Source: Methanomicrobiales archaeon
Lineage (GTDB): Archaea > Halobacteriota > Syntropharchaeia > Alkanophagales > Methanospirareceae
Direction of reading: 5' to 3'
DNA length: 41,992 nt
NCBI GenBank assembly: GCA_003160755.1
Contig: QEXZ01000002.1
Span: 1 to 41,992, forward strand
The notes under the pieces are model-generated. The model was not told the origin of the DNA. It searched no databases and was given only the letters and a program-made list of their open reading frames with translations. Each line of letters opens with the position of its first letter. Positions within the stretch are counted from its first letter, which is position 1. This document shows positions 15,130 to 18,474 of this stretch, piece by piece. The translations under genes were made by a program, and so were the position numbers.

Positions 15130-16710
15130 CTAAAAGATTACCTTATCGGGATACAACTCCTTTGCAGCGGATAGAACATCCTCTATTTGCTTTCCCTCCA
15201 CCATTTTCGTCCCTATCTCTTCCTTATTCAGCATAAACGGCTCATCTAGCATTATTTTCGCCTCATCAAGCACCATCGTCGACCAGCTGACACTTCGCAC
15301 ATGCGAGCCATACCTTCTCAACATTTCAACCTTGAAAAAGTCCCGTGTCTGTTCGGGTGCATTACGCAATGCGTATTTCACCCTATCCGATAAAGCCCCC
15401 CAATCAACTTCTGGCAATGCTCGCTTTGCGAATGCCCGCGACTCCTTCGGATTGTAAAGGCAACTGCCTTTCAGGCTGTCTTCGTCATCCTGAATGTCGT
15501 ACAGCGCACTTTCGTCCACCAGTGCGTATTGGTTACAGACGCTTATTCCTTCAGCAGCATTTTTTGGCTCATAATTCACAAGCAATGCCAATTTCGTCAC
15601 CCAATCAATCCCATCCACGTATTTTTCGAGCTGTCGCGCTTCTAAGTCCTCTATCACTCCTTTTAAGCCTTTTCTCCCTATTTCAGCCCATTTTTGGTCT
15701 TCTTTTTCCTCCCCCATCTCTTCATACATCGCCTCTATCCGTTCGTGATAAAACCGGAGAATGGAAACGGCATCCGTGGACTCGCCGCTCTTCAACTTTA
15801 ACTTCCACTCGCATTCTTGTGTATCTGCTGATATCTTTTTGAACGTTCTCACAGGGTCTTCTATCTCTGGAGCATCGTTCAGAAACCCCAATTCAAATGC
15901 ACTGATTACCATCGCCTGTGCAATGTCACGTAAGAAAATCGCGTATTCCGAACGAAGCGCTTCGTAATGTATGTCGTGCAGTCGCCAGTATTGACGTGCA
16001 GCATGCGGCTGGTCTCGCGTGTTCAGAATACCTCTGCCCGCTGTGGTCGAAAGAGAGGAGGGATGAACAACAAACATCGCTCTTGGCGAAATAACAAACT
16101 TCACTCCTTCTTTACCTATGGTATCTCCGGAAACAACGTCTCCTGCCCCGGTGAACAGTATTCTTGTAACCATCCAGGGTATTAGCGCCTTCTCTACACG
16201 ACTCCAATCCCTGCATACTGCCCTTTTTGTTAGTATATTCCCATGTGTAGCGTACGTATTGGTCTTTACTCTTTTCGCACCTGCACTGCCAGCACCAGCA
16301 CCAGCGACCGCACCAGAGCGACTGAAGAAATTCGCAACATTATTCTTATGGACGACAACTTTTTTCTTTAACGCCAGACTCGCCTCTTTTGACCCCATAA
16401 AAGCATATATCTCGGATGCTTTGTCGTATGCCACGGCATCAAAAGGGTTGTTGTAAGAAGGTGTTGATATTTCAAGATGCCCCATATCGTTATAAATCCG
16501 GCAGCCGTTTTCACCAAACGAAGAAGCTATTTTCGATTCATGCGCCTCTTGCGATACCTCGGTAGCGGTGTCCCAGTTCACATCGCGTGAAAATTTTCTT
16601 CGTTTTAAACCTTGAATCGCAGCGTTAACGAGCAAAGACGGGTTTAAACTTACTTTTATACTCAACGGATATTCCTGCTCTATCCCTCTTATCCTATTTT
16701 CCGTTTTCAT
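15130..16710 (-). CDS. PafA/Dop (Pup ligase/deamidase) family protein, paralog 2 (526 aa)
   Basis: RIRGIEQEYPL; NGCRIYNDMGHLEISTP; HKNNV...THGNI; LIPWMVTRILFTGAG; GILNTRDQPHA..YWRLHD; IDWVTKL; APEQTRDFF. These are collinear with the actinobacterial PafA/Dop signatures as I recall them. Confidence 0.8.
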   Translation of the reverse strand: MKTENRIRGIEQEYPLSIKVSLNPSLLVNAAIQGLKRRKFSRDVNWDTATEVSQEAHESKIASSFGENGCRIYNDMGHLEISTPSYNNPFDAVAYDKASEIYAFMGSKEASLALKKKVVVHKNNVANFFSRSGAVAGAGAGSAGAKRVKTNTYATHGNILTKRAVCRDWSRVEKALIPWMVTRILFTGAGDVVSGDTIGKEGVKFVISPRAMFVVHPSSLSTTAGRGILNTRDQPHAARQYWRLHDIHYEALRSEYAIFLRDIAQAMVISAFELGFLNDAPEIEDPVRTFKKISADTQECEWKLKLKSGESTDAVSILRFYHERIEAMYEEMGEEKEDQKWAEIGRKGLKGVIEDLEARQLEKYVDGIDWVTKLALLVNYEPKNAAEGISVCNQYALVDESALYDIQDDEDSLKGSCLYNPKESRAFAKRALPEVDWGALSDRVKYALRNAPEQTRDFFKVEMLRRYGSHVRSVSWSTMVLDEAKIMLDEPFMLNKEEIGTKMVEGKQIEDVLSAAKELYPDKVIF

Positions 16711-16716
16711 TAACCA

Positions 16717-18474
16717 TTATATCTCTTCTTCCTCGCCCCTGCTTTCCTCCTCTTCCCTGCTTATCTCTTCTAACCGTTTCTTTATCGTGTCCTCATTCCA
16801 ACCATCCAGTTCATCGAATCTATACGTCTTATTATTAGAATACAGCAAATAATCTAAATACGGATTCCTGACTACTCTGTTCCTTATCTCGCGGCTTATC
16901 TCCTCCTCCCAGCCCCTTATATCCTCTTCCTCCGCCAGAAGCCGCACAAGAACCTGCCTTGTCGCCTCACCTCGCCTCCGTTCACGCAAAAACACTACCA
17001 CCGCGCTCGGCATCCTCGCAAGTTCTGGATACCTTTCAAACATCCGCGTATATTCTTCTCCCGTTGGTCTACCCATATCTATCTTTATCTTTGGCTCTCT
17101 GTTTATCGTTATCTTATTCCAGCTCAGTGCCGCATTCCCAAATTCTGATGCAAGTCTTACCCTCAGCTCCGCCCTTGAATCCTTCGGTGGAAATAACAAC
17201 GCTTCTCCTATCTCCTCTTCCGTTAATATTCGTTCAACGCCTATTTTATCCGCTATGCGCTCATATAAGTCATAATCGCAGAGATTGGTGAAATCAAACG
17301 AAGCCGCTATCTCTTTCTCTATCTCCTCATCCATCGTGTAGATGCTCCGATAATCGAATTTCCCTTTTGATGTGTATTTATAATCAAAATTATTTATCTC
17401 GTTCTTTATCACCCATAATTTCATCACCCATTCTAAACGCCGCACCACGTATGGGTCTTCAAGCAATCCCTGCCTGAACTTATCACAAAGCCTCTTGAAC
17501 GTTTCCAAAACGTATTTGTCCCAGTAGGACGTCTCTCGCTCATCAAACAGCTCCTCTATCACCGCGAGATAATTCGCCTCTAAGTAATCAACCGCCAGTT
17601 CAGTCCTTCCGTTCGTCAGTTTTACCCGCCAATCGCCTTCGGTATTTGCTGAAATGTCTTTAAATGTTTGAAGCGGATTCCCGATGTCCTCCACGTGCGA
17701 GAGTTTCCCGGTTTCTATTGCATCCAGAACATACGATGTGAGCGCATTATTGAGCAGCCGTGTAACTTCCGAGCGAACTCCTTCTCCCGATGTGACATGC
17801 ACACGGTATTTATCTTTTGTGCCCAATGGTTCATCGCGTGTAGACAATATAGGCCATTGAGACGGCGACTCGGTAAGAACCCGCTTTGAAACCATCGCTT
17901 TCGGCGAAATCACGTATTTTAATCCCTCCTTCTCCGCTATAAAACCGCCAGCACCAAAAAATATCTTACGCAGTATTAAAAAAGGTATAAACAGATTCTC
18001 TCTACCCACAAAGTTCCGCCGCACCACCTCATAGGATTCGTGCGTGCCCCTGCTATATCTCTTGTCTATCTCCACGTTTGCTTTCCAGCACTGGATGTAT
18101 GAAGGGCCATTTGCCCTTTTTCTCAATTTCTCCCGGTATTTTTTATTTGCTCGCTCTACACCTATCTGCATATACAGCTCCGCGGCTTTATCGTATTTCA
18201 GCGCCTCGAAGGCATTTCTGCACTCGGGTGTGGCTATCTCTAAGTGACCGCCCGTGCAGATATAAATCCGCGAGCCGTTTCTCAAAAACCCGTCATTTCT
18301 CCGCCGCAGCTTCGAGCATACCGCATTCGTACCGTCAAAAAAAGTATAATTCTCAAGTGCGTGAATCACTTCGTCAACATGATAAAATCTCGCATACCTG
18401 TACAAGCCGGGCGATTCTGAACTTATACCCACTCTAAATTCGTGCTCTACCCCTTGCCATTTGTTCAAATCCAT
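16717..18474 (-). CDS. PafA/Dop (Pup ligase/deamidase) family protein, paralog 1 (585 aa, with ~110-aa C-terminal extension)
   Basis: QGVEHEFRV; RNGSRIYICTGGHLEIATPEC; WKANV..GTHESYEV; FIPFLILRKIFFGAGG; ILSTRDEPL..KYRVHV; LEWVMKL; FPPKDSRAELR. Its stop lies 6 nt before the paralog 2 ATG. Confidence 0.8.
   Translation of the reverse strand: MDLNKWQGVEHEFRVGISSESPGLYRYARFYHVDEVIHALENYTFFDGTNAVCSKLRRRNDGFLRNGSRIYICTGGHLEIATPECRNAFEALKYDKAAELYMQIGVERANKKYREKLRKRANGPSYIQCWKANVEIDKRYSRGTHESYEVVRRNFVGRENLFIPFLILRKIFFGAGGFIAEKEGLKYVISPKAMVSKRVLTESPSQWPILSTRDEPLGTKDKYRVHVTSGEGVRSEVTRLLNNALTSYVLDAIETGKLSHVEDIGNPLQTFKDISANTEGDWRVKLTNGRTELAVDYLEANYLAVIEELFDERETSYWDKYVLETFKRLCDKFRQGLLEDPYVVRRLEWVMKLWVIKNEINNFDYKYTSKGKFDYRSIYTMDEEIEKEIAASFDFTNLCDYDLYERIADKIGVERILTEEEIGEALLFPPKDSRAELRVRLASEFGNAALSWNKITINREPKIKIDMGRPTGEEYTRMFERYPELARMPSAVVVFLRERRRGEATRQVLVRLLAEEEDIRGWEEEISREIRNRVVRNPYLDYLLYSNNKTYRFDELDGWNEDTIKKRLEEISREEEESRGEEEEI

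Follow-up and report, generated by a model that had tools for sequence, protein, structure and literature searches.

A candidate Pup-like operon in archaea with an invariant cysteine at the catalytic aspartate position of one of its two ligase-family enzymes

On the minus strand of a 41,992-nucleotide stretch of DNA from an ANME-1 archaeon, a methane oxidiser (the window; contig QEXZ01000002.1 of assembly GCA_003160755.1, positions 1-41,992 of the forward strand, to which all coordinates refer) lie two adjacent open reading frames (ORFs) that are separated by a gap of 6 nucleotides and encode enzymes of the Pup-ligase family, namely P1 (585 residues; 16717-18474) and P2 (526 residues; 15130-16710). 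They share 27% identity, match Pfam PF03136 with 195 bits (P1) and 225 bits (P2) at a cutoff of 25, and stand in an operon in the order proteasomal-type AAA ATPase, P1, P2 and a small Pup-like tag. In P1, the position of the catalytic aspartate of the bacterial ligase PafA and the depupylase Dop is taken by a cysteine, Cys73, which is invariant among its close homologues, while the rest of the active site is retained. We are evenly divided on whether the operon is an archaeal counterpart to the Pup-proteasome system, one where P1 and P2 would both be active, with Cys73 replacing the aspartate as acid/base or nucleophilic residue.

The assignment of Cys73 to the catalytic column was obtained by four alignment routes, namely phmmer against PDB sequences, hmmsearch with a family profile against PDB sequences, MAFFT with reference enzymes, and hhalign of each clade against a canonical alignment of 40 sequences. 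Reference numbering follows Acidothermus Dop (AcelDop, residues 2-459) and Corynebacterium PafA (CgluPafA, residues 10-476), the sequences of which were reconstructed from hmmsearch output and the numbering of which was validated by reproducing published residue positions. All four routes, including phmmer against Dop 4b0r, place Cys73 of P1 (codon TGC, 18256-18258, minus strand) in the column that holds Asp94 in Dop and Asp64 in PafA, and likewise Gly157 of P2 (codon GGG, 16240-16242, minus strand) in the column of Dop Glu156, the glutamate of the HENY motif. In hhalign, the P1 and P2 clades both aligned to the canonical clade with a probability of 100 (E-values of 2.9e-57 and 5e-75, respectively). 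The initial annotation of the window had proposed the cysteine in the LYxD motif of P1 and HGNI in place of HENY in P2 from an alignment by eye, and had set a profile alignment as the check for an aspartate or HENY motif at a shifted position; neither proved to be shifted, the by-eye alignment was right, and no shifted acidic residue was found in the P1 catalytic loop in the MAFFT mapping.

In Dop, magnesium is coordinated by Glu8, Glu10, Tyr92, Glu99, His155 and His241, the phosphate is held by Arg227 and His241, and Asp94 activates water (Cui et al., 2021; PMC8599861). In the MAFFT mapping, the magnesium ligands correspond, in this order, to E10, E12, Y71, E79, H145 and H226 of P1 and to E11, E13, Y73, E80, H156 and H245 of P2, Arg227 corresponds to R213 and R232, and Asp94 to C73 and D75, while Dop Glu156 and His231 are represented by E146 and L217 in P1 and by G157 and H236 in P2. 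Both proteins retain every magnesium and phosphate ligand named for Dop, and with these the apparatus by which the carboxylate-amine ligase fold binds ATP and magnesium and handles a γ-glutamyl phosphate; the sole exception within the catalytic set is Cys73 of P1. The motifs that the initial annotation had read as kept are confirmed by this mapping, with GVEHEF (E10, E12) and HESY in P1, beside RIYICTGGHLE (Cys73) and RDEPL, and with GIEQEY (E11, E13) and Asp75 in P2, beside ATHGNI. Its proposal that the two chains deviate in complementary ways was not upheld, as both keep the complete ligand set and the HENY glutamate is not a reported ligand, being absent from both the Dop ligand list and the text of the same study (PMC8599861).

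A further deviation had been claimed in RDEPL, which P1 carries in place of RDEPH. The motif is indeed present, but it is not unusual, since leucine is frequent at the histidine position among canonical-clade representatives. In Dop, a tryptophan of the Dop-loop stacks on His231, a residue lining the nucleotide pocket (PMC8599861), and this loop of about 37 residues is not present in P1 or P2, as judged by the spacing between the ExE motif and the catalytic residue (61 in P1 and 62 in P2, against 84 in AcelDop and 46 in CgluPafA). With the stacking loop missing and leucine common, RDEPL was rejected as a meaningful deviation.

Because Glu156 of Dop is next to the ligand His155 on a β-strand, its side chain should be turned to the opposite face of the sheet, and the residue at position 157 of P2 presumably faces away from the active site. 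The replacement of the HENY glutamate by glycine, which is clade-wide and outside the known ligand set, would then be a second-shell change. In the P2-type clade, the absence of Glu156 co-occurs with V242D (giving RLHD) and with an aromatic residue for G245 (Dop numbering), an association that essentially involves one clade and is confounded by phylogeny; the second-shell carboxylate may have been relocated by way of the acidic residue beside the histidine motif (RLHD). The Gly/Ala-rich insertion of about 20 residues that had been noted in P2 measures 21 residues (residues 129-149; 16264-16326, minus strand) and forms the tip of a β-hairpin that lies between the KNN and His strands. It differs in length and sequence among orthologues and has a low predicted local distance difference test (pLDDT) score, and the hairpin region comprises 11-33 residues across the P2-type clade versus 7 in canonical enzymes.

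AlphaFold2 models of both proteins, computed from homologue alignments, reach a mean pLDDT of 84 for P1 and 93 for P2. With Foldseek, the P1 model matched Dop 4b0r (E-value 1e-29) and PafA 4bjr (2e-28), and the P2 model matched the Dop-Pup complex 7oxy (1e-26, TM 0.87); overall, Dop and PafA structures were retrieved at E-values of 1e-29 to 1e-14, followed by YbdK and glutamate-cysteine ligases. The NCBIfam models of the bacterial enzymes give far lower scores than their cutoffs, with 154 bits (P1) and 149 bits (P2) for the PafA model TIGR03686 (cutoff 551) and 157 bits (P1) and 199 bits (P2) for the Dop model TIGR03688 (cutoff 492). Together with the missing Dop-loop and, in a rough tree, a position outside the bacterial PafA/Dop group, these scores of 149-199 bits agree with the earlier view that P1 and P2 are not textbook enzymes of either the PafA or the Dop kind.

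P1 also carries the C-terminal extension with an acidic tail that had been described for it, although it is somewhat longer than the estimated 110 residues or so. The alignment with Dop stops at about residue 457, and some 125 residues follow (residues 460-585; 16720-17097, minus strand) that lie outside the Dop-aligned region and end in a Glu-rich tail, which amounts to a net excess of about 80 residues over Dop and of 90-130 residues over short P1-type relatives. The extension had no Pfam match at E ≤ 10; its pLDDT is low at about residues 470-540 and high in the last helix, and among orthologues the composition of the acidic tail is kept while its sequence is not. Cys73 is one of three cysteines that are invariant in the P1 clade, the others being C85 (about 18220-18222, minus strand) and C129 (about 18088-18090, minus strand). 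Of these, C73 and C129 are peculiar to the clade, as aspartate and leucine stand there in the reference enzymes, and C129 shares a face of the KxN strand with the conserved lysine and asparagine. The three cysteines might constitute a redox or metal site, or a switch for tagging.

The substitutions in both proteins are conserved. All P1 homologues in which the motif is covered have the cysteine (>100 database clusters, mostly ANME-1/Methanophagales), as do 23 of 24 clade representatives down to 45% identity, the exception being P0237, a P1-type protein of another lineage with aspartate. All P2 homologues read HGN[IFLVYT], and Gly157 is invariant among P2 orthologues. In about 50 distinct DNA contexts, the cysteine is encoded 47 times by TGC and three times by TGT, and all four GGN codons are in use for the glycine; the variation of synonymous codons indicates that both residues are maintained at the protein level. 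Across the wider family, aligned as 163 sequences (the best 150 of 5,508 cluster representatives at E ≤ 1e-3 plus reference sets), Glu156 is present in 131 sequences, and cysteine occupies the catalytic position in only 10. Beyond the P1 clade, a single one of the cluster representatives bears the cysteine, P0291, in which other ligands have been lost too.

Relatives of both proteins extend beyond the ANME-1 group. P1-type and P2-type genes are paired in ANME-1 and Alkanophaga and also in many genomes of Bathyarchaeia and Methanomethylicota, where they were retrieved with a profile built from distant P2-type sequences. In a rough neighbour-joining tree (158 sequences, 438 columns, midpoint-rooted, calculated without support values), the family falls into three groups, namely a P1-type clade, a P2-type clade and a bacterial group containing the reference PafA and Dop, which suggests that the two archaeal clades branch outside the bacterial PafA/Dop split. 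The P2-type clade is uniform: its members always have the aspartate, never have Glu156, always have an insertion of 11-33 residues ahead of the His strand, and share the catalytic loop R[IV]Y[ND]D..H[LF]E. In the P1-type clade, by contrast, the catalytic position is filled by Cys, Asp, His, Glu or Gln. The loop reads RIYICTGGHLE in ANME-1 and its relatives and [LV]CY[IV]HSNLFE in many Bathyarchaeia, with histidine at the catalytic position and the preceding arginine lost, while Methanomethylicota and some Bathyarchaeia have RAYGD followed by a longer loop and several further lineages also have aspartate. The remaining ligand set is retained in nearly all of these lineage variants. A solitary P1-type gene in another locus (L067, 255-1739) encodes a protein of 494 residues (P0112 group) with the loop ICHSLPE, hence with cysteine at the catalytic position, in which the loop histidine and the RDEP motif are lost; it has no adjoining P2-type gene, AAA gene or tag.

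About 50 loci, in genomes of Methanophagales, Alkanophaga and Methanoxibalbensis, show the arrangement AAA-P1-P2-tag. The tag gene of the window (14775-15047, minus strand), which is conserved directly downstream of P2, encodes a protein of about 80-90 residues with an acidic, variable N-terminal part and a Lys-rich C-terminal half that hardly varies and ends in KKIMPYEIYATSGE (ATSGE); terminal variants are TAGE and, in one genome, TSGQ. It has the features by which a Pup-like modifier is recognised here, being a small ORF that adjoins ligase-family genes and having a C-terminal Gly-Glu or Gly-Gln. Linkage is predicted through the side chain of the terminal glutamate, which would leave IMPYEIYATSGE as the C-terminal tryptic remnant. 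Four archaeal tags gave no match to the Pfam and NCBIfam models of Pup and UBact at E ≤ 10, and hence they appear Pup-like by position, composition and C-terminus, a resemblance that stops short of established homology to Pup. Where the tag ends in glutamine, as in some lineages, at least one enzyme of the pair would have to deamidate it. Right past the tag stop codon, inspection by eye showed a pair of short inverted repeats rich in GC (CCCTGC…GCAGGG and CTGGGGC…GCCCCAG) at 14720-14775.

The first gene of the operon encodes a proteasomal-type AAA+ ATPase of about 543 residues (18576-20207, minus strand; Pfam AAA, 119 bits). As listed, the ORF extends to 20423, and the likely start is Met73 at 20207. 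The protein has an N-terminal coiled-coil/OB-like region, and its residues 88-528 align to positions 12-457 of the 512 in the Mpa/ARC model pup_AAA (TIGR03689) with 152 bits, below the cutoff of 505; the NCBIfam models of PAN and Cdc48 score about alike. Against PDB sequences, it shows generic similarity to the classic AAA clade, with Cdc48/VAT ranking first because these are two-domain proteins. The C-terminus E[ED]TGMH[FY] (18576-18620, minus strand) is invariant in 48 orthologues and could, by analogy with HbYX or the GQYL of Mpa, be a proteasome-docking tail. Divergent from the ATPase gene, an AbrB/MazE-type protein with a PhoU domain (20229-21395, plus strand; Pfam PhoU and MazE_antitoxin) is encoded in the same place in most ANME-1 loci, and it is a candidate regulator of the operon, its membership of the system being uncertain.

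In most pair loci of Bathyarchaeia and Methanomethylicota, a small ORF follows that ends in APPG[EQ], APSGE, STGGE or GTSGQ. One locus from an uncultured archaeon (L063, 1508-9779) contains, in order, genes for a Cdc48-like double AAA protein, a 395-residue protein, proteasome beta, proteasome alpha, a P1-type and a P2-type enzyme, and a tag of 61 residues ending in STGGE, an order that ties the enzyme pair to the proteasome. It is the clearest physical link of this kind among the loci. Some operon contigs (L020/L087, L029/L073 and L115) are filed under metagenome-assembled genomes of Nitrosotalea, Desulfobacteria and Patescibacteria, which are probably binning errors. Desulfobacteria are syntrophic partners of anaerobic methanotrophic archaea (ANME).

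Taken together, these features allow a mechanism to be proposed along the lines of bacterial pupylation. P1 and P2 would bind ATP and magnesium and handle the γ-glutamyl phosphate of the terminal glutamate of the tag, as PafA and Dop do, and this C-terminal glutamate (glutamine in some relatives) of a disordered tag of about 90 residues would be the point of attachment. Once the glutamate had been phosphorylated, Cys73 of P1 would activate the lysine amine or a water molecule, acting as general base or possibly as nucleophile, while P2 would be a fully equipped, normal enzyme, and the proteasomal-type AAA protein would serve as the unfoldase of the tagging system. The role of the residue that Cys73 replaces differs between accounts: the PafA aspartate is suggested to be the catalytic base, with D64N employed as a catalytically inactive construct (bioRxiv 10.64898/2026.04.10.717840), and for the Dop aspartate it is debated whether it acts as base or as direct nucleophile (PMC12288473; PMC3511204). 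The occurrence of Asp, His or Cys by lineage at the P1 position favours a simple functional substitution over a heteromer, an obligatory thioester or a pseudoenzyme, and, as all three residues are capable of proton transfer, the most economical reading of the alignments is that Cys73 is a working replacement of the aspartate.

With regard to the division of labour, we infer weakly that P1 is ligase-like and P2 deamidase- or de-conjugase-like. P1 has a catalytic loop of PafA length with the PafA glycine and an alanine at the position of PafA A72, while P2 has a loop of Dop length, Ser at S101, Phe at F208, Leu at L215 and a score for the Dop model above that for the PafA model. Hecht et al. give positions that discriminate PafA from Dop, but an assignment as ligase or depupylase on that basis was rejected, as it gave a mixed picture; these positions may not apply, because both clades fall outside the PafA/Dop split in the rough tree and may predate it.

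This mixed picture is one of several points that weigh against two active enzymes with a working Cys73. The placement of Cys73 near the acyl phosphate derives from alignment and strand alternation, the activity of both clades is a prediction, and a thiol is unusual as a general base. The changes to histidine and cysteine could also mean that, in P1-type proteins, the second chemical step is less constrained than before. Moreover, the P1-type relatives P0268 and P0291 have lost additional ligands, so that the clade is able to decay toward non-catalytic forms.

A more radical role for the cysteine would be covalent catalysis, in which Cys73 attacks the γ-glutamyl phosphate to give an enzyme-tag thioester that is then passed to the target lysine or, if P1 is a hydrolase, attacks the isopeptide bond in the manner of cysteine isopeptidases. 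The strict invariance of the cysteine in the clade and the retention of every ligand needed to make the acyl phosphate are in keeping with this chemistry, and active-site cysteines react with acyl phosphates in γ-glutamyl phosphate reductase, aspartate-semialdehyde dehydrogenase and glyceraldehyde-3-phosphate dehydrogenase. Cys73 stands, in addition, exactly in the column of the residue to which a model of Dop assigns direct nucleophilic attack with an acyl intermediate (PMC12288473; PMC3511204). However, the aspartate and histidine of sister P1-type lineages fit proton transfer better than an obligatory thioester, which we consider unlikely. Were Cys73 a covalent nucleophile, a Pup-type ligase of the glutamine-synthetase fold would have converged, in an archaeon, on the thioester logic of ubiquitin E1, E2 and HECT enzymes, a prospect that we regard as quite unlikely.

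It is also conceivable, though we think it unlikely, that P1 is catalytically impaired, binds the tag and perhaps phosphorylates it, and acts as adaptor to, or regulator of, P2 or the AAA protein, so that P2 would both ligate and de-conjugate. Such a double role has a precedent in PafA, which itself pupylates and depupylates (PMC12288473). An impaired P1 would be in line with a catalytic loop that is plastic in P1-type proteins and constant in the P2-type, with the loss of further ligands in some P1-type relatives, and with the clade-specific extension of about 125 residues, the acidic tail of which could mediate protein contacts. On the other hand, the ANME-1 clade retains all magnesium and phosphate ligands and the family-wide invariant residues down to 45% identity, which would not be expected of a pure adaptor and disfavours a pseudoenzyme, and the cysteine itself is under strict conservation.

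The strict pairing of P1-type and P2-type genes in almost all loci across several archaeal phyla, with tight spacing (6 nucleotides here, overlapping genes in locus L062), raises the question of whether the two chains cooperate as an obligate heteromer, and heterodimers of PafA paralogues were once predicted on like grounds (PMC2588565). Bacterial PafA and Dop are also co-inherited, however, and are treated as separate enzymes with opposite activities (PMC3511204; PMC12288473). Both chains possess a nearly complete active site of their own, which leaves no evident gap for the partner to fill, and the solitary Cys-type P1 relative has no adjoining partner, all of which renders an obligate heteromer improbable. 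An artefact, whether through misalignment with the canonical Asp or Glu at shifted positions or through sequencing errors in the assembly, has a negligible probability, as the four alignment methods are concordant for Cys73 and Gly157, the P1 loop is without any acidic residue, and the same residues recur with synonymous codon changes in about 50 or more independent assemblies.

When compared with the bacterial enzymes, P1 shows likeness to PafA (4b0t, 4bjr), with which it shares PF03136, the fold, the GhExE motif, the magnesium ligands and the phosphate-binding Arg and His, all of which are common to P2 as well. Furthermore, the β3/4 loop of P1 is of PafA length with the extra residue and glycine (D-V-G-S-H in PafA, C-T-G-G-H in P1), the Dop-loop is missing in both, and the P1 gene lies near a tag that ends in Gly-Glu. 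P1 differs from PafA in the change of Asp64 to Cys73, in the additional C-terminal extension and in its archaeal host, and it remains below the equivalog cutoff and outside the PafA clade in the rough tree. Dop (4b0r, 5lrt, 7oxy, 9cku) is the best match for both proteins in sequence and structure, and P2 shares with it the loop length (D-x-x-H), the aspartate and all ligands; P2 differs in lacking Glu156 and having the longer hairpin, belongs to a separate clade in the rough tree and scores below the Dop cutoff. The archaeal tag is, like Pup and UBact, small, charged, probably disordered and encoded beside ligase-family genes, and it ends in small residues followed by Gly-Glu or Gly-Gln; it differs from them in its greater length, its acidic N-terminal part, its Lys-rich C-terminal half and the lack of a profile match. 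The C-terminus of UBact is [T/S]-G-[E/Q], similar to ATSGE. The single-copy and divergent members of the Pup-ligase family in Planctomycetes and further bacteria likewise lie outside the PafA and Dop clusters (PMC7947786; PMC2588565), whereas the P1 and P2 clades are archaeal and paired and have Cys/His and non-Glu variants.

Pupylation has been described as a bacterial, mainly actinobacterial, process with homologues only in bacteria (PMC3511204; PMC7947786; PMC2588565), and surveys of the Pup-ligase family covered bacterial lineages only (Iyer et al., 2008, PMC2588565; Hecht et al., 2020, PMC7947786). Full-text searches of the library used gave no paper that connects pupylation with ANME-1, Bathyarchaeia or archaeal metagenomes, and in databases the P1-type and P2-type proteins are annotated as 'PafA2 family' or 'Pup--protein ligase'. 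The archaeal Pup-like operon, with an invariant cysteine in one enzyme where bacterial relatives have the catalytic aspartate, appears to be a newly noted variant. If functional, it would place a Pup-type tagging pathway in several archaeal phyla that already have proteasomes, and the position of both clades outside the PafA/Dop split in the rough tree would bear on the origin of the Pup system and of its link to the proteasome. ANME-1 archaea are key in anaerobic methane oxidation, and to our knowledge little is known of their protein turnover. The natural, conserved Cys and His replacements in otherwise whole active sites may also serve as probes in the debate on whether the aspartate acts as base or as nucleophile (PMC12288473).

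Among the other genes of the window, those for HemD, SRP54, an aldehyde:ferredoxin oxidoreductase and a MatE transporter have housekeeping or metabolic roles, so that the window fits an archaeal chromosome rather than a mobile element. A gene for a Fic/DOC-family protein lies at 7333-8376 (plus strand), and the protein encoded at 11555-12505 (plus strand) combines a TIR domain at its C-terminus (Pfam TIR_2, 68 bits) with three almost identical tandem repeats of about 43 residues ahead of it (…RRFI[KE]NNPYNGKAKKRLIEIGSIEDLEWLHNRYPFNE…); it is possibly the product of a defence-related gene.

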